Origin: Botryllus schlosseri
Taxonomy: Eukaryota
Direction: 5' to 3'
DNA length: 64,000 bases
Assembly (NCBI GenBank): GCA_051294905.1
Contig: CM119372.1
Coordinates: 30,010,001 to 30,074,000, forward strand
The position numbers and the translations under genes were made by a program. The notes beneath the pieces are model-generated. The model was given only the letters and a program-made list of their open reading frames with translations, searched no databases and was not told where the DNA came from. Positions 5,516 to 51,400 of this stretch are shown here, in pieces. Positions within the stretch are counted from its first letter, which is position 1. The number at the start of each line of letters is the position of its first letter.

Positions 5516-6137
5516 CAATGATTCATATATTCGTTAAATATCACATGACTAATTGCAATTAAAAGGGTACATTTATTTATATGACAATATAATATAACAT
5601 TCTCACCTTTAACAGAGGGCGACATCTTTATCAAGTAGATGGATACCAGTAATCGCCATAAAACATAAGGAATGAGCATTGTATTCTTCTTAGCCAACAA
5701 TCATCGTATACATATTAACTAACCGCGTAGCAGTATTTACGAACATTAAAATAGAGGAATATCCTCACGACATGTCACTGTTTAACGCAGTGTTTCTCAA
5801 CCCCGAGTCCGCGGACTCAAATGAGTCCGTGAAAGGACATGGATGAGTCCGCGAGCACAGGGATTTTCGGTAAATTAATCGACACACACGTTGACAAATT
5901 GTCAACCTGGTATTTCCTCATGTGTTTCAATGGAAAAGCGGAAGTCTCATTTTGAATGTGTTATATTAGATGATTTTATATTGATAAAACATTACCAAAC
6001 GATCATATATCCTAATTTGGAGGTCCACGGACATAGTTTTAGCTTGAGAATGTCGAATATCCACCAAAAAATATCGAAATTTACAGTTTTTTCTTCAATT
6101 TCCGATATGATATCGGAACATGTAATTGACGGACCTA

Positions 6138-6219
6138 CGGGGCTCGTTCACTTTCGGACCAAAGTCATCACAGCCTTACGGAGAAAATAGCTTTTTGGTC
6201 CGAAAGTGCATGAGCCCCG
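6138..6219. mobile_element. 82-bp TA-flanked MITE (Tc1/mariner-like) nested in the hAT
   Basis: 26-bp TIR CGGGGCTC(GTT/ATG)CACTTTCGGACCAAA, 24/26 identical, with TA on both sides. Confidence 0.75.
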
Positions 6220-7419
6220 TACTGGTCCGGGTTCGTCAAATTCCGATTTGAGACTTGGGCTTCAACCTTGATGGGTGATTCGCAAAATACAACTCTTGAA
6301 CTGTTAGTCACCTAGCTGTCATATAAAATGCAAATATACCCAAATATGTGACTAGCGGCACTGAGCTTGAATAGTGCTTTCAGAACTATATTCATAGTAG
6401 TAGAATTTATTACCTCGAAGACTTTTCGCGTACCCCTTATCAAGAGATATACAATAAGAAGGAGAAAGATTTTGTCTACAATCGTTAAGTATGCCATAAA
6501 TATATACCGCTAATTGTCTCTGTAACGTCTTCCGTGTATTGTATAATTTTATTTTCTCTTGTCCCTTTATTAGACTACCGGTACAGCTGACTTTGGCCAG
6601 CTTGCGCTCGTTTTTATTATTATATTGTTACGTCATATTTTGCCAATTTGGTTATCGTTAGAATATAGAATGTTTACATTCTATAGTTAGAACCTATTTC
6701 TGTATGCTTCTTATTGTGCCGTTAACTCTTGATGAGGGTCATACGAAATGCCTTCAAGTTAATAAATTATACTACAATGAATGTAGTTTGGAATGCAATA
6801 TCAGAGATACCTCAATAAGCGATGTTTCGCCACGTATATTTCAAACGCAAGAACAACGAAACATAAAGCTCTACAACAAATTGTTCAGCATTCCAAGCAA
6901 TATTCGTTCTCCTGAAATGTTCTGTGTCTTGGGCAACCAGTTGGTTGCAAGTGTCACAGGCAAGACGGGTATGCTTTGGACATCTGTAGCATCTTCCTGG
7001 CTTGATACCAAATATGTCAGGGATGCCTATAAACCCTTATTATCGGCAACTAGAATTTTTCAAAATGCCCTAGATTTATGGCCGAGGTAGCCCATTGGTA
7101 AAATTGTCATAACCAATTCTATCCTGGTTATAAATGTACAATTTTCGTCGGATTGACTTGAATTTGGTACGCTTGGATGCGGAATTTGACGATGAGTACT
7201 CACATACCGAAAATGCCAGGTATAAACTCCCATGACAGCTCTTCATACACACGTATGCACCGCTTGCACGCGTTTTCGGCGCGATATACGCTGAGTGTTA
7301 TTGTATTTATTGCGACTTATGGTCCACTTGTAGACGTTATTTGGATATTGATAAATCGTAGGGACATGTGCTCATTACAGAAACAATCTATAGTTGTCTA
7401 TTTATTAGTAGAACTCGAA

Positions 7420-28717: not shown

Positions 28718-29677
28718 CTAACTCACAACTTGCAATGGTACGGAAGATGTCTTGTTGACTCTTGTCACCGCTGGTTGGTCTTTCACGATAAATGGAAACA
28801 TTGTTTTTCTCCATTTCGGAAATGCAGCAACAACCATGCACAAATTAACCATTGGGTTGAATTGACTCAAAGCAGCAGGGAAAAAACCATCTTTGACAAT
28901 TTTTGTCATAACAATGAGAGAGATGATGACATCCGTGCCAACGCAGACAGACGCACATACTAACGATCTAACGACCAGAGGCTTCAAGCTTTCTCCGCCA
29001 CTTTGGTTTTGTGAATTGTGTTTAATCAGGGGATATGCGAATAATCCAAGAAGTGAGAACTGTGTGACGGTGGCCATTATGATTCTTGGAAAATAAGCGA
29101 TCATCGGATTGAACCTTGCTGCGGTGATGGCGCATCCCGATTCCAGAACTTCCATCTCGTAAGCTGCTATGAAAAGAGCGAAGGAAGCGAATGGTGAAAT
29201 CACCGGCAGAATTCCGGAGATCCAACTCAAAAGGCGTAAAGTAGGAGTCGTCAAATGACTCATTGATGGTTTCAGGTAAAGCGATCTTTGCCTCATCCAC
29301 AGCACCACGTAAATGAACGAAGCTGCTGCATTGATTGACACGATTTTCAAGTACTTGACCGGGGCGCACCATTCATGAGCAAACATATCCACAGCAATAT
29401 CCTCCAGGACGGTCGCCACGAAGAACAGGGTTGTGCTTGCTGCACAAAGTACGGACAATATTTTGATGCGAATTTGAATCGAAGTCGCCTTTCTCACTGC
29501 AATCGGACAAATATAATCCTTCAGCAATGCCACGGTTATCCAACTTGACTGGATTAGGAACAATGCAGTTGTTGACGCAAAAAATATCCAGAATTTCCAC
29601 GACTTCACAACTTCTATTTTTGCAGATGTATTTGAAGAGGTGACGGGGGTGGATTCTAGGTTATATTCTCCAGACAT
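28718..29677 (-). CDS. Intronless seven-transmembrane GPCR-like protein, 319 aa (divergent, orphan)
   Basis: ATG-to-stop ORF with seven hydrophobic segments, N-terminal sequon NTS, Cys at the TM3 start (HEWCAP) and in ECL2 (ESGCAI), LWMRQR at the DRY position, Pro in TM5 (FAYP) and NP in TM7. Confidence 0.85.
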   Translation of the reverse strand: MSGEYNLESTPVTSSNTSAKIEVVKSWKFWIFFASTTALFLIQSSWITVALLKDYICPIAVRKATSIQIRIKILSVLCAASTTLFFVATVLEDIAVDMFAHEWCAPVKYLKIVSINAAASFIYVVLWMRQRSLYLKPSMSHLTTPTLRLLSWISGILPVISPFASFALFIAAYEMEVLESGCAITAARFNPMIAYFPRIIMATVTQFSLLGLFAYPLIKHNSQNQSGGESLKPLVVRSLVCASVCVGTDVIISLIVMTKIVKDGFFPAALSQFNPMVNLCMVVAAFPKWRKTMFPFIVKDQPAVTRVNKTSSVPLQVVS

Positions 29678-29697
29678 TTCTCAAATAATGATGTTTC

Positions 29698-29725: not shown

Positions 29726-30442
29726 GCCTTATGTATAATATTTATATCTCGTATGCAGTTGTTCCAACAATTACAGACTATGAAGTTTTCTAAATTTGCG
29801 ATCAATGACCTGTGCAGACATTTCTCAAGTTATGATTTATTCTACCGAAAGTAACGAATAACGAACAAAAACTCCGAAAGTATTTATTGCATCCGATGAT
29901 TTTGAGCATTCTACTGAATTATAAGCAATCATACCCATATTAGAGGCGAGCTTCAATTTTACTTTAATTCATTCCCTCATTTATTCATTGCTTATTTTAA
30001 TGTATTTCTATCAGTTCAAAATATTAGATTGCGATAAAATGAAAAGATAGGAAGTCGCCCTGTGATGGTTTTTAAGCAGAGAACGCATTTGGCCTAGATC
30101 AGGGGCCGGCAACCGACGGCTGTGGAAGAGCATCTGCCTCAGCTTTCTGCATAGACTTATGAAATGGCAACAAAATGCCAGGTCTTGGTCTACTATGGCA
30201 GGTTTACAAAATTTGAAGAATATAATCAAGCAAAAACTTGACGTCATGGAAGAAAACCAGCGGAATTTTGGAATCAACATACCAAAATTAGCCTAAATCA
30301 AGTTCAAATTCAATGTCAACAAATTTTTCGTTGAAAATTGTTGCGCAGTGTAATCTGCTATTACACATTTGTTGCAATATAGAACACTGTTGCATCAAAT
30401 AAAAAGAAAACATTGCTTTATATACTCTGATTTCATCTAAAC

Positions 30443-34707: not shown

Positions 34708-35273
34708 GTTCGATCGATCAATCAATCAATATAATAATCGTCAGATAGTATTATCATCTGCCCAAGACACACACGCAGTGTACAATGGGATATACAACAC
34801 GCACAATGCGATATAATGAGCAGATAGGGAGATGCCGAACAGTCCACTAGTTGGGGTGTGTTAAACTGGCATCCACCTCGTCGGTCCCTTTTTAGAAGAT
34901 ATTTCTTGCTCTTTCCTTTCTTTATCGGTTCTCTTTTTTTCTGGGCTTTTTTTGTCGCCGTAAGAACAGCGACACGGGCTATGTTCCTTCTAATTTTTGC
35001 TGAGTCTACGCGCACTCACTAATGCACTGCACTGTCAATTAGACAACAGTGCGTAAAGACTAAAAAAAGGTCATCACTTCGTATTTTTTGTGCGCAGCTT
35101 AGATTTTCTGTGCGCAGAGACCGTATTAGCAGCACGCAATTGCGCACGTGCGCAGCTTAGAGTGCACTTTGGACACTGGGGTCGAGGGGCCCATAACCAC
35201 CTCCAACGGCGGGACTTGAACCCGGGCCGCCTGTGTAGATGGCGCCGGCGCTCACCGCCACGCTATCTCCGTC
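34708..35273 (-). mobile_element. tRNA-derived SINE interrupted by a hAT MITE
   Basis: Minus-strand head GGACGGAGATAGCGTGGCGGT (A box)...GGCCCGGGTTCAAGTCCCG (B box); body resumes after the MITE and ends in an (ATTG)n tail at ~34710-34730. Confidence 0.72.
34979..35171. mobile_element. hAT MITE with CAATGTTCCCTCTAA-type termini and TGCGCA repeats
   Basis: Left CTATGTTCCTTCTAA, right TTAGAGTGCACTTTG; TSD GACACGGG/GACACTGG (7/8). Confidence 0.78.
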
Positions 35274-36093
35274 CATTCAAATAAAAATGCGAACCGAATT
35301 AAATAAAATTCTTCAATTATAATTCTGCTAAAATCCCTACTTCCAGAGTTTGCAAATCCAAATTCATGCTCGTCTCCAATCGCCTGGTTGGGATAGTTGG
35401 GGTGACTCATGAATTATTATGATTCTAAGAAACGTCAAAGCGTAGGGTACTAGTATTATTATTGTTCTTGTTGCTGTTGTTTATTAAACAAAAAGTATTA
35501 TTGTGAATAATAATTCACGTCAATGACAGTGATCGGTATCGCCTATCTTAGACTATCACTACATTTGATGATGTCCAGCGTATTTGCGTTGGTGCGACTT
35601 CATGAAAGACTTCTCGTTCCCACGCATTGCCATTCTTTTTCTTTTTCTCCTTCACCGGTCCATGCTCACTTCTCTGCTGCCGAATTAAAGCACTCTGCTC
35701 TCTCTCCGTTGGGCTTTTCAATACTTGTACAGTACGATTTTGCGCAAGTTGTGATTTATAGAAACTTGATATGAAACCCGGATGATGAAAACAGATCTTA
35801 TCCAAGGCTTTGTAGTAAAACTCAGTGTTGGCGACTTCAACAAAATCAATAGCCTGAAAAAATTGACCCAGTGAAAATATAATTTTCGGCGGTCGAGCCT
35901 GAATATACGGTCAAATTAGAAAGGACTTCAAATTTAAACGACAGTGAAATAATCAAGCGATCTATTTACATATAGTGCGAAATATTTCCAGTAAAAAGTT
36001 TGGGTCTAGTATATAGTAAGCACCTGCAAAGAATCCGGTATCAGTGGGGAGCACGGGATTTAAGTTGTCTGGTGTTGCATTATGTGTTGATTT

Positions 36094-39000
36094 GTGTTTC
36101 ACGTGGGATGCGATTTGGCCGGGGCTCAAGTGACGTCACCAAATTCCTCTGCGCCCCGAACCCCCTCCCCTATCCTTATCAGCCGATTCCCGGTCCGTAG
36201 GCCAGTCACTGGGGCCTTACCTGCCGCCCGTGCCTGGCTTCGGACTGCCGGGGATAGCAGACAGTCCCTAGGCCGACGTACCACACCCCCAAAAATTGTG
36301 GTTTCCCCCCCAAGGGACTTTACTCCCTCCCCACCCCAAACGTTAGTGAAGAGACGTTTGACCCCTGTCTCTTCACCAAGCCCCATTCCATCGCTTTCGG
36401 AATTGTTTAAAGCACCTTTGCCTGGCAGCCCGAGCTCTACTCAAGAGCTCCTTGCCAAGTTGGACCGGGGAAGTCCCTTCCCCACCACACGCGATGACCT
36501 GAAACAGATATCGTCGGCGGGATCGAGTCCGAACACCGTAGACTCGCCTCCCGTCGGTCAGGGCATGTCTCCCTCGCGCCCACTTGCGGACGAGACATGT
36601 GCTGTGACGGCTGGATCAGCGGTCGAACGCTCCGAAGTTACCGGAGCTGTCGACGGCTGTGAAAGCCCGACGAGATTGCCTCCTTCGGTAAGTGCACGTG
36701 ACGAAATAGATGTCGACGTGCCTTCTCCCGAACCGAGCGCACCTCGTGCACAAGTCGATCTGCGCGAGTTGCGCTCGGAGCTTGCAGACTTGGTGTCAGA
36801 ATGTCCTCACAACATCGAGGCTTTCGGGCACCTTGAACGTGAGCTGGAGCTCTGGACTGACCGTGCCTCTGATTGCAGCCGCCCTCCCGGCCGTAAACGC
36901 CCTAGGAACCGATACTCGCGCGAAGCACAACGCCGTGCTAAGGTCAATCAATTGAATGGCCAGCGCGAGTGTCGACCTGGGGCAGCCCAACATCTTCGGT
37001 CCGCTTTCTGGCGCAATCAGAAGGAAACGGTCAGACAGATCATCGAGGATGATTCTGGCGGTAAACGGTGCGAAATTCCTGCCGACATAATCGAGCGGAA
37101 ATTTCGTGCTGACGCCGCCGCTGACGTCACTGATAATATTGCTGCTTTTCCTCGCTGGATGTCTCAGCACAGTTACCAGGGCAACCTGGCTTCTGCTGTT
37201 GACGACGAGTCGATTACTCCATCAGAGGTAGCAGGAGTGCTGGCGACCCTAAACACCAGTAGTTCGCCAGGCTCCGATGGTCTCACCTATGGATTTTGGA
37301 AACGCTTAGACCCCAAGGGAGAAATCCTCTCTGAGCTTTTCGAAGTCTGTAGGCGTTGCCGACGTATTCCACTTGTGTGGCGCTCGTCGCGGGTAATCCT
37401 GATTCCAAAGGACCGCGACGGCGACATGCAAGACGTCGGCAACTGGAGACCCATCGCGCTATCCAGGACGCTGTATAAGATCTACGCGTCCGTAATCGCT
37501 CGCCGTCTTCAGAGCTGGGCATCCGATGGAGATGTTGTCTCCATGGAACAAAAGGGGTTTGTTCCGCGAGAGGGGGTCTTCGAGCACGTGTTCATGCTTG
37601 AGTCCTTGCTTGCGGATGCCAAGTCGTCAAGGCAGGATATTTATCTTGCCTGGCTTGACATCCGCAATGCATTCGGTACCGTTCGGCATGGATCCGTGAT
37701 CGAGGTCCTGAAGCACTTTAACGCCCCGGAGTATCTGGTGGAGGTGATGACCGATATCTACGCGTCTAACGTGTTTGCAGTCGCGACCAGCTCTGGTCCG
37801 ACAGACCCCATTCCAGCGGGGAAGGGTGTCCGTCAAGGATGCCCTTTATCGGCCATCACCTTCAACCTGGTCATGGAGGTTCTCCTGCGTGGCGTTGCTG
37901 GGCTTCAAAGCAGCGGTTATCGGTTTTCTGCGGCGGATGGCGTCACTGTCAGAGTTCAGGGTTACGCAGATGACACCTGTCTGTGTGCTTCGTCTCGCGT
38001 CCAGCTTCAAGCACAATTAGATATGTGCGATGAATTTTCTCGGTGGTCTGGTATGAAGTTCAAGCCCGCCAAGTGTCGTGTTCTTGCCTTGGGATTCAAG
38101 GGAAGCCGATCGATCGTGGACTCGGCCCCGTTCTGCCTTGATGGTGGCGAGGTCCGGGTCCTCGATCGTGACTCTTTCTGGCGATACCTGGGCAAGAACA
38201 TGGGTTACCAGGCAACCGAGAAAGGTGGGAAGGCCCTTAAAACTTTCGAGGCCTATTGTGATAGACTTTTTCTGTCACATCTCACCTCATTTCAGAAGCT
38301 GCTCGCACTGAAGAGGTTCGTTATTCCAAGAATCCTTTTTCAGTTGAGAATCCGCAAGTTCTACCGAAGCGATCTGCGTCGCCTGGATGCGCGTATCCGC
38401 ACGTTGGTGAAGGCGGAATTCCGCCTCCCTAACAGAGCGTGTCAGCCCTTTTTCCATGCTGGGCTGACGACTGGCGGTCTGGGGATTCCCAACCTCTGCT
38501 GCGAAGCAGATGTGTTGAGGCTTTCCCAGGCCGCCAAAATGGTCAATTCCACTAACCCCTCTGTGCGGGCGGTTGCGCGTGGAAGGTTGGCGCTGGTCGT
38601 CCGGAGGGCTTGCCGAGTCCCAGAGGCGTCGGAGACCCTGACAGTCGAGTTTTTAAACTGCGTGAGTCTAACAGGGCACGATTCCAGGGCGTACGGAGAC
38701 GCCTACGGGCTTTGGACCGAGGTCCAACCCGTCGCTAGGCGTCTCGGTGCTCGCTGGTTCGTGACCGAAGACGGGCTCTATCAGTTGGCTCTAGGCGCCG
38801 ACTGTTGTCAGGATTTGGGTCGTCTTACCAAATTTCTTCACCTGAAGGTGAACCAACGTTGGAAGACACGGTGGATGGAGCTTCCCGACCAGGGCAAAAC
38901 TGTGGAGTGCCACAGCCGGTACGGGAGCTCCAATCGCTTCCTCCGGTCTTCCAACGTCCTGACGGCAGTCGAGCGTAGCTGGATGCTTAAGGCTCGACTG

Positions 39001-39612
39001 AATCTTCTGCCGCTCCGGTCGATCCGGGGTCGGTTTAGAAATCGTGTGGAGCCAAGTGTGGTCTGCTGCAAGTGCGGACAGCATACCGAGACCCTGCCCC
39101 ACGTACTGAACCACTGCCTGCCAGTGATGGATAGCATCACGAACAGGCACAATTCGGTACTTGGGGTGCTCCTGGACTGTATTCCAAGCTCTTCTTCTTT
39201 TTTCAGATGCGATGTGGACCGCGTTTGCGAGGAGCACGCCACATTGGCCAACAGGCGGCTGAGGCCCGACCTCATCCTAGCGGATCGTCGCCGGGTCTTA
39301 GTCATCGATGTGGTGTGCCCCTTCGAGAATGGGGTAGCCAGTATGGACGCTGCCGTTGCACTGAAACACGCAAAGTACAAGGACCTCTGTGAGTCTCTCC
39401 GCGTTGCCACGGCCAAGGTGGTGGAGATGCACACGTTCGCGGTCGGGTCCCTGGGGAGTTACCACCCTGGGAACCTGACCACCTTACGTGCGATGGGTGT
39501 TTCGGTCTTCGAGTCCAGACTGGTCTCCGAGCGAGCCGTGGTCGCTTCTCAGCGCAGCTCTCATCGTGTCTGGAAGGCTTGGTGTAGTGTGCGGGACCAC
39601 GAGAGGACTTGA
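36094..39612 (+). CDS. Reverse transcriptase - CCHC zinc knuckle - PD-(D/E)xK endonuclease polyprotein (first in-frame ATG at 36565)
   Basis: Motifs SPGSDG (region 0), NWRPIAL, QKGF, WLDIRNAFG, GVRQGCPLS, YADD, RYLG, GGLGIP, CKCG..ETLPHVLNHC, RHNSV, RPDLI, IDVVCPFE and KHAKYKDL; no stops or frameshifts over 1172 codons. Confidence 0.95.
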   Translation: MFHVGCDLAGAQVTSPNSSAPRTPSPILISRFPVRRPVTGALPAARAWLRTAGDSRQSLGRRTTPPKIVVSPPRDFTPSPPQTLVKRRLTPVSSPSPIPSLSELFKAPLPGSPSSTQELLAKLDRGSPFPTTRDDLKQISSAGSSPNTVDSPPVGQGMSPSRPLADETCAVTAGSAVERSEVTGAVDGCESPTRLPPSVSARDEIDVDVPSPEPSAPRAQVDLRELRSELADLVSECPHNIEAFGHLERELELWTDRASDCSRPPGRKRPRNRYSREAQRRAKVNQLNGQRECRPGAAQHLRSAFWRNQKETVRQIIEDDSGGKRCEIPADIIERKFRADAAADVTDNIAAFPRWMSQHSYQGNLASAVDDESITPSEVAGVLATLNTSSSPGSDGLTYGFWKRLDPKGEILSELFEVCRRCRRIPLVWRSSRVILIPKDRDGDMQDVGNWRPIALSRTLYKIYASVIARRLQSWASDGDVVSMEQKGFVPREGVFEHVFMLESLLADAKSSRQDIYLAWLDIRNAFGTVRHGSVIEVLKHFNAPEYLVEVMTDIYASNVFAVATSSGPTDPIPAGKGVRQGCPLSAITFNLVMEVLLRGVAGLQSSGYRFSAADGVTVRVQGYADDTCLCASSRVQLQAQLDMCDEFSRWSGMKFKPAKCRVLALGFKGSRSIVDSAPFCLDGGEVRVLDRDSFWRYLGKNMGYQATEKGGKALKTFEAYCDRLFLSHLTSFQKLLALKRFVIPRILFQLRIRKFYRSDLRRLDARIRTLVKAEFRLPNRACQPFFHAGLTTGGLGIPNLCCEADVLRLSQAAKMVNSTNPSVRAVARGRLALVVRRACRVPEASETLTVEFLNCVSLTGHDSRAYGDAYGLWTEVQPVARRLGARWFVTEDGLYQLALGADCCQDLGRLTKFLHLKVNQRWKTRWMELPDQGKTVECHSRYGSSNRFLRSSNVLTAVERSWMLKARLNLLPLRSIRGRFRNRVEPSVVCCKCGQHTETLPHVLNHCLPVMDSITNRHNSVLGVLLDCIPSSSSFFRCDVDRVCEEHATLANRRLRPDLILADRRRVLVIDVVCPFENGVASMDAAVALKHAKYKDLCESLRVATAKVVEMHTFAVGSLGSYHPGNLTTLRAMGVSVFESRLVSERAVVASQRSSHRVWKAWCSVRDHERT

Positions 39613-39686
39613 TCCCCCCCTTCACGTGCTTTTTATTTGTTATGTGTTTTGTGTTATTGGTTATTAGCTTAGTCCGCTAGCCATCA

Positions 39687-40012
39687 CGGGGTTCGACTGC
39701 AGGCAACTGGACACTGGATTGATTCACGGAACTCCTCCCCAAATTAACATAAATGGACCCCTGCTAGTTTTAGTTTTTTGAAGTTGTTTTTCCGAGCGGT
39801 TCTAAATGCTAAGGGGAGGAGTTCCCCCACCTCTCGACAAAAAGTTTGATTTGATTTTTCACCACCACAATTACTATGATAATGCCTGCAGTCGGACCTC
39901 GCCAGTTCGCCCCTTTATTTTTTATGTTGTTTGTCGGCCTCCACCACATATATTGTGTGTTTTTGGTGGAGGCCTTTGTTTGTTGGTGCCCCCCGTCCCC
40001 GGGCGAACTGGC
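39687..40012 (+). other. Structured RNA domain in the retrotransposon 3' UTR
   Basis: Helices 39688-39705/39883-39900 (18 bp, 2 G-U), 39728-39740/39813-39825 (13 bp perfect), 39901-39912/40001-40012 (12 bp perfect) and 39936-39946/39964-39974 (11 bp perfect). Confidence 0.8.
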
Positions 40013-41989
40013 CATGTCTTCTCTGGCCCATGTTAATTAATATCGCATTTCCATTTTGTGATTTTTCGCTATTTATTTTTCGTAAAATAAAATCTTTTTC
40101 CCCGCCACCGTAAATGGCGGGTATTGTTCTGCGTTTATGTTTATCCATTTTCGCAAGGTGACCGAAGTCGCGAATATATTTATTTCGTATTGCATTTTCA
40201 TTTTGTGGAAATTTGCAGAAATAAAATATTACAAACAAAAATATGTACTATATACGGAACAGATAAATTTAAGACCCGAGATAGGAGAGAAGGTGCATTG
40301 GTAATAAGCTGTCAAAAGAAGTTTATATGGGGCGGCTTTGAGTTTTGACCAATCACGAAGGAGATAATCACATACCTCTCCTCATAAGGGGCGTCAATCA
40401 GCCAAAACTGAAACGAGCTATTACATCACAAGAACTAGGTCAAGTAACTACAAAGCACCCGGGACAATGTAAAAGATCACAGGCTATCTATCTCAGGTAA
40501 GTGCCGACTTGAGTGCAGGGATTTCAGCGGGAGACACTTCTGGCGAGCTAATGATTGTGGGGATAAAAACCCGGACAATTCCAGCGGCTTCACATTACAC
40601 TGAACTGCCTCATATTATGGAAGACAACGATGAAATTAATTATACCGATCGTTTGCGCGCACATATGATAATGGAGAGATCATATAACGTAAGGCGAACA
40701 AATTTATAACCGTCATACTAAGTGGGATTTCAATAATAATAATATTTGTGTGCGTGCATTGTTATCGCAAGCATAAGTCCGCCTTCTCCGCAAGATATTT
40801 GCGAGTGATATTAGTGCGTAATTATGCGAGAATGTGGGGCACAATAATTTCATTTCGCAGGAGGTCAGCGGTGAATATAATCATCATCATCATTGATTTA
40901 TTAGCAATTTTTATCGGTTCAATGCACCGCGGAAATGTGATACAATGAAAAGATAACATTTTTTGCGCTTCTCGCGATTTACCATGACGTATAGTTACTC
41001 GATTTTGCGAAACCCACGAAAATATATACGGCAACCTAATATCGTATGAAACTGTTTTGATACTTTAGTCTAGGAGGGTGCACTGTGCAGCCTGTGGGAC
41101 CGCGAATATTTTATATGGACCAGCATCTTTGTGCTTGGCAATTTCACGTTAAGATACGCACGTTTCGGGCAAAGTGCGACAGCTGCGTGTGCTGTATGCG
41201 TTGCCGAATGATTGGCGGCGATAGAGCATCGAAATATAATAACCACCGCATCTTGGCCTAAACTAAACGTTCGACATTGATATGTCCAGGCGCCGAAATC
41301 AGGGGTATATAGAGTTCTATAATTCCCTGGCCGAAATGACCGACGCGAATAGTCTAGTGCCCGCAGCTTCAGCCGCACGTCTCGAATGAGATCCACACAA
41401 ATAATGAGTCCCGTGTCGAAATGCGAATTTGAAATTGGGTTCGTCTCACAAAAAGGATATATTATTTTAGTTTCGCCTGATACGTGCAAGCAATTCCGAT
41501 ATGTCTGGAGCAAAGACAACCTTTACCGCTATACCGCGATCTTTGGAGCTTTGCAGACAAATCTAGCGTCAGACCAATAGTAACATCAAACCAACTTGCA
41601 TGGTATAGGGGTTGAGACATTTTTTATCATCAGGCCATCTCTTCATAACATCTTTGATCGGCCTGTCGCTTATTGGCTATGGTACCGAACACAGTAGCCT
41701 TGGAAACGATCAAGGTAACCACTGAAGATCGACCATTACGCGACTAAATTTAAAGGATGCACAATTGCACAATGCACATATTACGTACATTAGACGGTAG
41801 GTCTAGTGCGGTAAGGACCAAAATTTATACCTTTCACGGCCAATACTGTAAGAATCACTGACGTAACCAATGCCGTTACCAGCTGCAGATAGGTGGTCCG
41901 TGTGATTCCTTACTTGAAACATTGAATATCACAAAATAAAATGGTTGGCACGCAAGTTGGTAATATTTTACATTGTTTGATATTTTGGC

Positions 41990-49683: not shown

Positions 49684-51400
49684 TAGGGATGGTGTGAACC
49701 TCTGAAAGGTTCAGGTTCGTGTGAACGCGAACCTTTTTGAAAGGTTCTATGTGAACGCGAACGTGAACCTCATGACGTCACGTGACGTCATATTGCCAAT
49801 TTCAACCTTTTATTTCAACTCAATTAATGTGCTGTGCATGTACTGTACAGTAGGGCTCTTCAAAAATGACTTTTTTTCTCAAATCGTACTGGCTACTTAA
49901 TAAAATTGTTACGTTACCTAATTTAAGCCTACACACAAAATTTGGTTCAATTCCAGCCAGTAACCGCTTTGCTACAGGAGAAGAAAGTTAATATTTCTTA
50001 TATAAAAATAAATAATAAAAAATTTGAAAATTTTCTGTTCACCCCATGAAAGTGTTAGGCTGTCTATAGAAACGATCCTCACCAAATTTGGTTCAATTCC
50101 AACCAGTGGAAGCGGGGTTATTGCCGTCGAAAAATTTGGATTTGAATAAAATAGTATTTACGGTGAGCATAACTATAATAAATAAACAAAGAATCGGTCA
50201 CCGTAAATACTATTTTATTCAAATCCAAATTTTTCGACGGCAATAACTCCGCTTCCACTGGTTGGAATTGAACCAAATTTGGTGAGGATAGTTTCTATAG
50301 ACAGCCTAACACTTTCATGGGGTGAACAGAAAATTTTCAAATTTTTTATTATTAATTTTTATACAAGAAATTTCTTGTATAATTTCTTGTATTTCTTATC
50401 CTGTAGCAAAGCGGTTACTGGCTGAAGTTGTACCAAATTTTGTGTGTAGGCTTAAAATAGGTAACCTAACAAATTTATCAAGTAGCCAGTACGATTTGAG
50501 AAAAAAAGTCATTTTTGAAGAGCCCTACTGTACAGTACAGTACACGATACCTAGCGACGACTCGGGCCACATAATGGCAGAGTGTTGAAGTACATATTGA
50601 CGTATATTAAACGTCGCCAATAAATGTATCGACTGAGGCAATCAAATGATATAATAATCTCATAAAATCAATATCTTTCGTCGCTTTGCCGACAATTTCG
50701 ACGAGGACTTGCCAGATAATAGCCTATATGTTTTCTTATAAGCTTACGCCTTAACGGTCTAGGCCTGGCCGGACAATGTATTCGGCGTCTGAGTATTGCT
50801 ACATGGATATTGAGCAGAGTGCAGTACGGTTTCTATACTTGCTAACAATATTGCCTCAATAACAAATTATACAACAGTAGCCAACAACCTATTCGTACAG
50901 ATTATTTTTATGATACAGTATACATAAGAAGTCAAGATTGGCCCCGTGCGCCTGATAGATTTTTTCATGAGAAAACGATATCAATCTCATTGATTGGTTG
51001 AATAAGCATCATTCGCTGATTACATGCAGTGTAATTCGCTCTTGATGTTATGTGATTGGGGGTCAATCTCACAGTAAAGAGTCACTAAATATTCACAAAC
51101 GGAAAACTGGATATTTGGAGCAAACTTTAGCAAAAATTCGAGCAAAAATTTTTGAGATTGTCAAGGTGCATGCCGATTTAGTGTTGATTGTTTATGCTGC
51201 CAGCGCCATGCACAAAGTGGCCCGCAGTTGAAATGCATTAAATTTGAATCAAGGATGTTATAATGAGGTGAAAATTGCAAATATATGAAAACGGTTCACA
51301 GTGCAGAACCTACCAAGGTTCTGTTGTGAACGCGAACCTCAAAATTTCCGAGGTTCACACACAGAACGCGAACGTGAACCCCACGTTCACAATTACTTCT
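49684..51400 (+). mobile_element. TAGGGATG-family MITE, copy 2, interrupted by a foldback element; right terminus eroded
   Basis: Colinear with 3521-4794 from TAGGGATGGTGTGAACC to GAACCCCACGTTCAC; no TSD recovered. Confidence 0.88.
49851..50527. mobile_element. Foldback MITE: ~316-330-bp inverted arms with a 31-bp spacer
   Basis: Arms 49851-50166 and 50198-50527 are near-perfect reverse complements; termini TAGGGCTCTTCAAAAATGAC; TSD CTGTACAG. Confidence 0.93.

Follow-up and report, generated by a model that had tools for sequence, protein, structure and literature searches.

The R2 protein nicks its target and uses the 3′ end of the RNA that it has bound for priming; it recognizes the 3′ untranslated region (UTR) of that RNA by structure. 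In target-primed reverse transcription, R2 proteins hold on to the 3′ UTR and bring its end into place (PMC13580325). In the available text on the two solved systems, zebra-finch R2 needs only the last 65–67 of 325 nt, and the silk-moth R2 has a 40-nt core of two helices, the arms of which are separated by 81 and 98 nt. An A-rich tract forms the end of both cores and enters the reverse transcriptase (RT) (PMC12222951; PMC12180492). R2 UTR folds are reported to diverge between lineages (PMC13188248). Another group of RLE elements, YURE, is described as adjoining Utopia and NeSL and as inserting occasionally in U2-derived satellites (Kojima and Jurka, 2015, PMC4640811), and YURECi (AB097133; PMC2790886) is listed as not target-specific (PMC3636483). 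No published fold for a Utopia, YURE or NeSL 3′ UTR was found, although one may exist in Repbase reports, in subscription papers or in supplements. In this group a 3′ UTR with structure is what one would expect, and its presence is not surprising in kind.

The window analyzed here, a stretch of 64,000 nt from Botryllus schlosseri, carries on its plus strand a copy of a YURE/Utopia-lineage RLE non-LTR retrotransposon (36019–40241), of which the 3′ end is firm and the 5′ end tentative. The 5′ end was placed from a rise in GC near 36000–36100 and a TAGTA noted by eye just upstream, and no target-site duplication was found around the element. An uninterrupted open frame of 1173 codons (36091–39612, plus strand) encodes a Pro/Ser-rich linker, an RT with the YADD motif, a CCHC knuckle and a PD..D..K endonuclease, and thus combines RT, CCHC knuckle and restriction-like endonuclease in one ORF, which is a YURE/NeSL feature. 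Zinc fingers at the N-terminus, present in the closest relative (P0002), are absent from this frame, and nothing better than E 0.4 was found within 6.7 kb upstream, so the copy is probably 5′-incomplete. The stretch 36019–36156 contains two in-frame stops before 36091 and has no similarity to the zinc-finger region of the relatives; it could be either a piece of 5′ UTR joined via an internal deletion or captured sequence.

The best of 122 homologues were a Logan protein (60%), two Clavelina proteins (43% and 42%) and Ciona intestinalis Q76IM9/BAC82601 (42%), which we take, from the order of accessions, to be the YURECi protein. These matches are in keeping with an ascidian host. A quick tree search was run on the 67 of 68 distinct proteins supplied that passed the length filter. 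In this tree the window protein falls in an 11-row clade with Ciona Q76IM9 and the Clavelina proteins (SH-aLRT 100), apart from oomycete and arthropod matches, none of which is labelled Utopia. Judged from its sequence, the element adds a new member to the NeSL clade, in the YURE/Utopia part.

The original prediction described a two-domain, base-paired RNA at 39687–40012 of the plus strand, and the four long helices on which it was built were recovered with mean pair probabilities of 0.98–1.0 when the entire UTR was folded. Domain 1 (39688–39900) consists of P1 enclosing P2. The outer helix P1 (39688–39705/39883–39900) has the predicted 18 bp with G-U pairs as its only two exceptions, and its Watson-Crick core is 12 bp; P2 (39728–39740/39813–39825) is the perfect 13-bp inner helix that had been described, and hypervariable loops occupy 39760–39805 and 39826–39882. 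Domain 2 (39901–40012) abuts domain 1 as stated, with the first base of P3 (39901–39912/40001–40012, 12 bp) directly after the end of P1 and no linker, and P3 encloses the expected 11-bp hairpin P4 (39936–39946/39964–39974) with a U/G-rich internal loop between the two helices. The loops had been called U-rich, and 207 of the 496 non-helix UTR bases are indeed T. The helix extensions claimed for domain 1 fared less well. The two short helices above P2 (39744–39812, plus strand), TTAACAT/ATGCTAA and GGACC/GGTTC, can be located, but they are weak (pair probability 0.36–0.45 in the whole-UTR fold) and partly broken in other copies: the first contains an A-C mismatch and is separated from P2 by a 3-nt bulge, and one pair of the second is disrupted by 39801 T>A, which is present in run X13 and in ~30% of the depth of X1 (both introduced below).

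The 326-nt segment folds at −122 kcal/mol on the plus strand (z = −5.40), a value that none of 100 shuffles equalled, and the domains folded separately give z of −5.1 (domain 1) and −6.4 (domain 2). Four perfect helices of at least 11 bp lie within these 326 nt; among 5000 dinucleotide shuffles, 4939 had none, 60 had one and a single shuffle had two. The four long helices are real and beyond chance. The minus strand of the segment folds equally well (z −6.84), so G-U pairs alone are no proof of a plus-strand RNA, and the argument for the sense strand that had been drawn from them is weak. A search of Rfam, suggested alongside the prediction, returned four weak matches in 35000–41000, none of them within the segment, and no match at gathering score in the window. 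A ribozyme was likewise not indicated, either by an Rfam match or, for the hammerhead core, by eye.

The stretch is contained wholly or partly in 20 of 24 sequencing runs under five organism labels, and copies were compared over 39400–40400 in three contig sets (X1, X6, and X13), which together represent organisms A, B, and E. No RNA run is listed as containing the stretch, and an RNA run (X21) contributed no reads to this interval, which says nothing either way about expression. Depth in this comparison continues across both domains and drops at ~40250. Among the loose contig ends listed are 40241 (X6), 40234 (X13), and 40254 (X1), all of which enter the same sequence; it starts TCTGTTCTT and, by eye, is identical at 24 of 30 positions to the U2_sat line of Ciona (S1 Fig of PMC4640811). 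The flank of the other copies starts at U2 nucleotide 39, which is the Utopia site, with at least one loose end in each of the three DNA runs. With the 3′ end at 40241, the 3′ UTR runs from the stop codon to the element end as 39613–40241 (629 nt, plus strand), and the segment under study stops 229 nt short of that end. The predicted placement in the 3′ UTR of an RLE retrotransposon is therefore upheld, with the segment forming the middle of a UTR that extends to 40241.

The host flank of the window copy (40242–40256, plus strand) is a degenerate U2-like target, identical to the U2-like flank of the other copies at 11 of 15 positions as counted by eye (binomial p 3.5e-4), which marks the window copy as an off-target insertion in a look-alike site. 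A tRNA target was considered and rejected, as there is no tRNA gene in the window. One X6 contig joins the flank 40241–40283 to a different upstream sequence, with a 6/8 match by eye to the U2 bases before the nick. This junction may represent an empty site; a search of the window upstream of the element did not recover its upstream sequence.

Single contigs link the ORF to the helices in X13 (record 9, 39400–39930, covering domain 1) and in X6 (record 22, 39433–40241, covering the whole UTR), and these two contigs come from organisms B and E. The helices are thus present in other copies, as the original prediction would have it, and the long arms are less changed than the loops between them. 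Of the 32 substitutions in record 9, 30 are listed: the loops have 26 over 219 bases, the ORF has 2 over 213, the long arms have 1 over 75 and the short helices have 1 over 24. The depletion of arms relative to loops has a one-sided Fisher p of 0.003, or 0.03 if both remaining substitutions are assigned to the arms, as computed on this one contig, which ends at 39930 and hardly covers domain 2. The 3′ arm of P2 with its extension (20 nt) has no change listed, compared with 24 changes in 103 bases of the flanking loops (p 0.009), and the p value of this embedded-arm test becomes 0.05 or 0.15 if one or two of the remaining changes fall in the arm. The arms change at a rate similar to that of the endonuclease-coding end (1–3/75 and 2–4/213). 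The 74-nt spacer after the stop codon also has no change listed in record 9, and a scarcity of changes is therefore not peculiar to the helices in this copy. The sole arm substitution listed in record 9, 39887 T>C, would disrupt a pair if its partner, 39701, is unchanged. A variant P2 arm was seen at 39714. There is no compensatory pair among the substitutions listed in the comparison of X1, X6, and X13, where those listed for X6 record 22 are 17 of 58 changes. Deletions at 39737 and 39813, which have matching shares (10.2% and 10.6%) and would jointly remove one C-G pair, were considered as covariation and rejected, given that seven other homopolymer deletions have shares of 6–39%.

Other comparisons extend beyond this contig. 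Word depth in X1, which is not a copy number, peaks over the P1 arms (6000–6450) and is 670–1190 over the loops. For diverged relatives (~89% identical at the ORF end), the alignment is lost in the spacer and regained at 39677, with alignment joints from 39612, 39616, or 39617 to 39673 or 39677 in X1 and X6 and no alignable spacer before 39677. The block that remains alignable in these relatives (39677–39753, plus strand; records 13 and 23) comprises the leader, the P1 5′ arm and the P2 5′ arm. A second alignable block (40017–40129, plus strand; records 6, 7, 8, and 15) contains small hairpins at 40072–40091 and 40101–40121, with pair probabilities of 0.91 and 0.98. The loop of the latter hairpin could pair with 40134–40139 in a putative H-type pseudoknot of 6 bp, noted by eye. 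Slippage may raise the mutation rate of the U-rich loops, and their alignment may contain errors, which would affect the contrast between arms and loops. Selection on the arms is likely.

The element ends in a terminal module (40176–40241, plus strand) composed of a TTGCA...TGCA hairpin, AAUAAA and an A-rich tail, where reverse transcription likely starts. This module folds modestly (z about −2), and its pattern has one further match in the window, at 30372. The 3′ end of YURECi, as drawn in S1 Fig of PMC4640811, has by eye the same order of parts despite ~40% protein identity. The original prediction took the two domains to be the template-recognition RNA of the lineage. In its favor, the domains do lie in the 3′ UTR and are kept in other copies, and the arms of the R2Bm core are also far apart; on the other hand, 229 nt separate the domains from the 3′ end of the element, and the piece shared with YURECi, the terminal hairpin with AAUAAA, is located outside 39687–40012. 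The terminal module is the best candidate for the initiation module.

The reading that we prefer, and to which we give about an even chance of being correct, is that selection keeps the domains as a scaffold midway along the UTR and that reverse transcription starts at the separate terminal hairpin and A-rich tail. In such an RNA, P1–P4 would turn two large, variable loops into closed, rigid arms, and the long helices would shorten the path from the stop codon to the 3′ end. The scaffold could provide a structured loading point for freshly synthesized protein and help it to pick its own RNA, and reverse transcription would start at the terminal hairpin and A-rich tail, 165–229 nt downstream of the domains. 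We infer the fold in the cell, the stacking of P1 and P3, an action on protein loading rather than on decay or translation, and the terminal initiation site.

A less probable arrangement is that the P1/P3 junction itself would be the RT-bound core, as in silk-moth R2, with the last 229 nt looped out. In R2Bm the helix arms are 81 and 98 nt apart and the determinants are spread over the UTR (PMC12222951; PMC12180492), and in the present UTR P1 and P3 abut without a linker and the leader before P1 is alignable in diverged relatives. However, the last helix of the R2 cores, as described in the accessible text, is directly followed by the A-rich tract, whereas 229 nt intervene here, and avian R2 needs only the last 65–67 nt (PMC12222951). 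Moreover, long-range pairs of the terminus reach probabilities of only 0.13–0.23, with no confident pairing that takes the 3′ end to the P1/P3 junction, and one diverged X13 contig aligns over 40034–40126 but not over the preceding 127 nt.

It is unlikely that the domains serve RNA stability instead, either by an ENE-like triple helix that would capture poly(A) or the A-rich end of the element in the domain-2 loop or by a block to exonucleases. Next to the G-C pairs of P4, both strands of this loop are rich in U, and they are 9-nt mirror images; 40231–40239 is the exact complement of 39975–39983, and Evade, an LTR element of plants, is reported to be more mobile with an ENE (PMC12501189). Yet a mirror match arose in 241 of 5000 shuffles and a terminal complement in 75 of 300, and both features were tested after being noticed. 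The tracts are also interrupted by G, the lower side of the loop has no helix next to the U tracts, and no ENE family is among the four weak Rfam matches.

We consider it quite unlikely that the helices are an unselected by-product, in which local inverted duplications from template switching would have made the arms, and these would look conserved only because GC-rich arms mutate more slowly than U-rich loops. The equal folding of both strands, the lack of covariation among the substitutions listed and the unchanged, unstructured spacer in record 9 would all fit such an origin. Against it, the four helices are nested, nearly perfect and mutually compatible, the arms change like the endonuclease end (1–3/75 vs. 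2–4/213) while the flanking loops reach 24/103, and the P1 5′ block is retained in relatives that are ~11% diverged.

An elaboration that we regard as improbable is that P1 and P3 would stack coaxially and the U/G loop of domain 2 would dock the element's own A-rich tail in a triple helix, forming an undescribed tertiary module. If this were true, the docking module would protect the RNA and hand its 3′ end to the RT, and a non-LTR element would be keeping hold of its template end by a new means, within a lineage that targets U2 and forms a bridge between YURE and Utopia. A MITE or another unrelated insertion confined to the window copy, an alternative that the original prediction had itself raised and that inverted repeats as such and the other palindromic repeats of the window might suggest, is refuted by the contigs that span ORF and helices in two other organisms and has next to no probability left, the segment being collinear with the ORF in all three DNA runs compared, with no second copy found in the 64-kb window and no terminal inverted repeat found around both domains.

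Several other features were observed in the window. A long near-perfect palindrome (49839–50539), whose arms measure 174 nt (98%) and 148 nt (95%), is probably a MITE. An uninterrupted hydrophobic frame of 320 codons on the minus strand (28718–29680) resembles a seven-transmembrane receptor by eye and has no Pfam match. Also on the minus strand, 35160–35275 resembles a tRNA-like SINE head by eye, with a weak Rfam match to a T-arm and no call by ARAGORN.

Relatives were also sought elsewhere. The metagenome scan gave 80 loci, including one close relative (L001, 47%) that ends before the 3′ region. Prokaryote genomes yielded no locus by protein or by the P1 pattern and 58 distant loci by alignment, the best of which has 24% over the full length, and viral contigs yielded none by protein and 64 matches to a 15-mer. 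No UTR match longer than 31 nt was present among all 202 loci (metagenome, prokaryote, and viral). Two of the distant RLE loci, L145 and L146, carry near-identical eukaryote-type RLE frames (24% to the query over residues 274–1157) in two gut bacterial bins and are probably contamination from a gut eukaryote. No perfect helix of at least 10 bp follows the ORF in either, and both are too distant to bear on the helices studied here.

The analysis defines a 629-nt UTR, two candidate modules and a target site for a family with an intact RT-endonuclease frame, and a defined UTR, modules and target are the requirements of an assay of target-primed reverse transcription outside R2. The extent of the UTR matters for such an assay: an inactive R2 template has been blamed on a wrongly truncated UTR annotation (PMC13580325, in its available text), and the coordinates 39687–40012 alone would lose the last 229 nt.

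Compared with R2, the window element likewise has a structured 3′ UTR in an RLE element and a terminal stem followed by an A-rich tract, and its helices resemble the P1-J1/2-P2 core of R2Bm in that the arms are far apart. In contrast, the helices of the window element are longer (11–18 bp) and located 229–555 nt from the 3′ end, and the target and the clade are different. In avian and turtle R2 the recognition element is a pseudoknot-hinge-stem. An R2-type core adjoins the A-rich 3′ terminus, a position that the terminal module (40176–40241) occupies and domains 1 and 2 do not. Like the ENEs of MALAT1, PAN, and plant Evade, the window UTR has an A-rich end that is preceded by a U-rich internal loop flanked by helices. 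However, the loop of domain 2 is large and asymmetric (23 × 26 nt), its tracts are interrupted by G and it has no Rfam match; moreover, P4 closes it on one side only, and its symmetry is not clearly above chance.

The closest likeness is to the YURE elements of Ciona (YURECi, YURE-2_Cis, and YURE_CSa; NeSL clade), and the Ciona protein taken as that of YURECi falls in one clade with the window protein (SH-aLRT 100). The 3′ end of YURECi, in the published figure, also resembles that of the window element by eye in its T-rich arm, TGCA stem, AATAAAA, and tail of 10–15 nt, and YURE and the window family have in common a loose preference for U2 and the presence of off-target copies. No UTR structure for YURE is described in the accessible part of PMC4640811. 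Utopia shares with the window family a 3′ junction at U2 nucleotide 39 and the combination of RT, CCHC, and RLE in one frame. It differs in that the window protein sides with YURE-like ascidian proteins, in a tree that holds no Utopia-labelled protein, and in that the window copy is located in a degenerate site and is without N-terminal zinc fingers. In the published alignment, the junction of YURECi and YURE-2_Cis with U2_sat lies 21 nt downstream of that of the window family, which joins at the start of TCTGTTCTT, so the window family, while YURE-like, keeps the Utopia site. A YURE-like protein with a junction at U2 nucleotide 39 fits the idea, put forward in the available text of PMC4640811, that YURE arose from a U2-specific ancestor.
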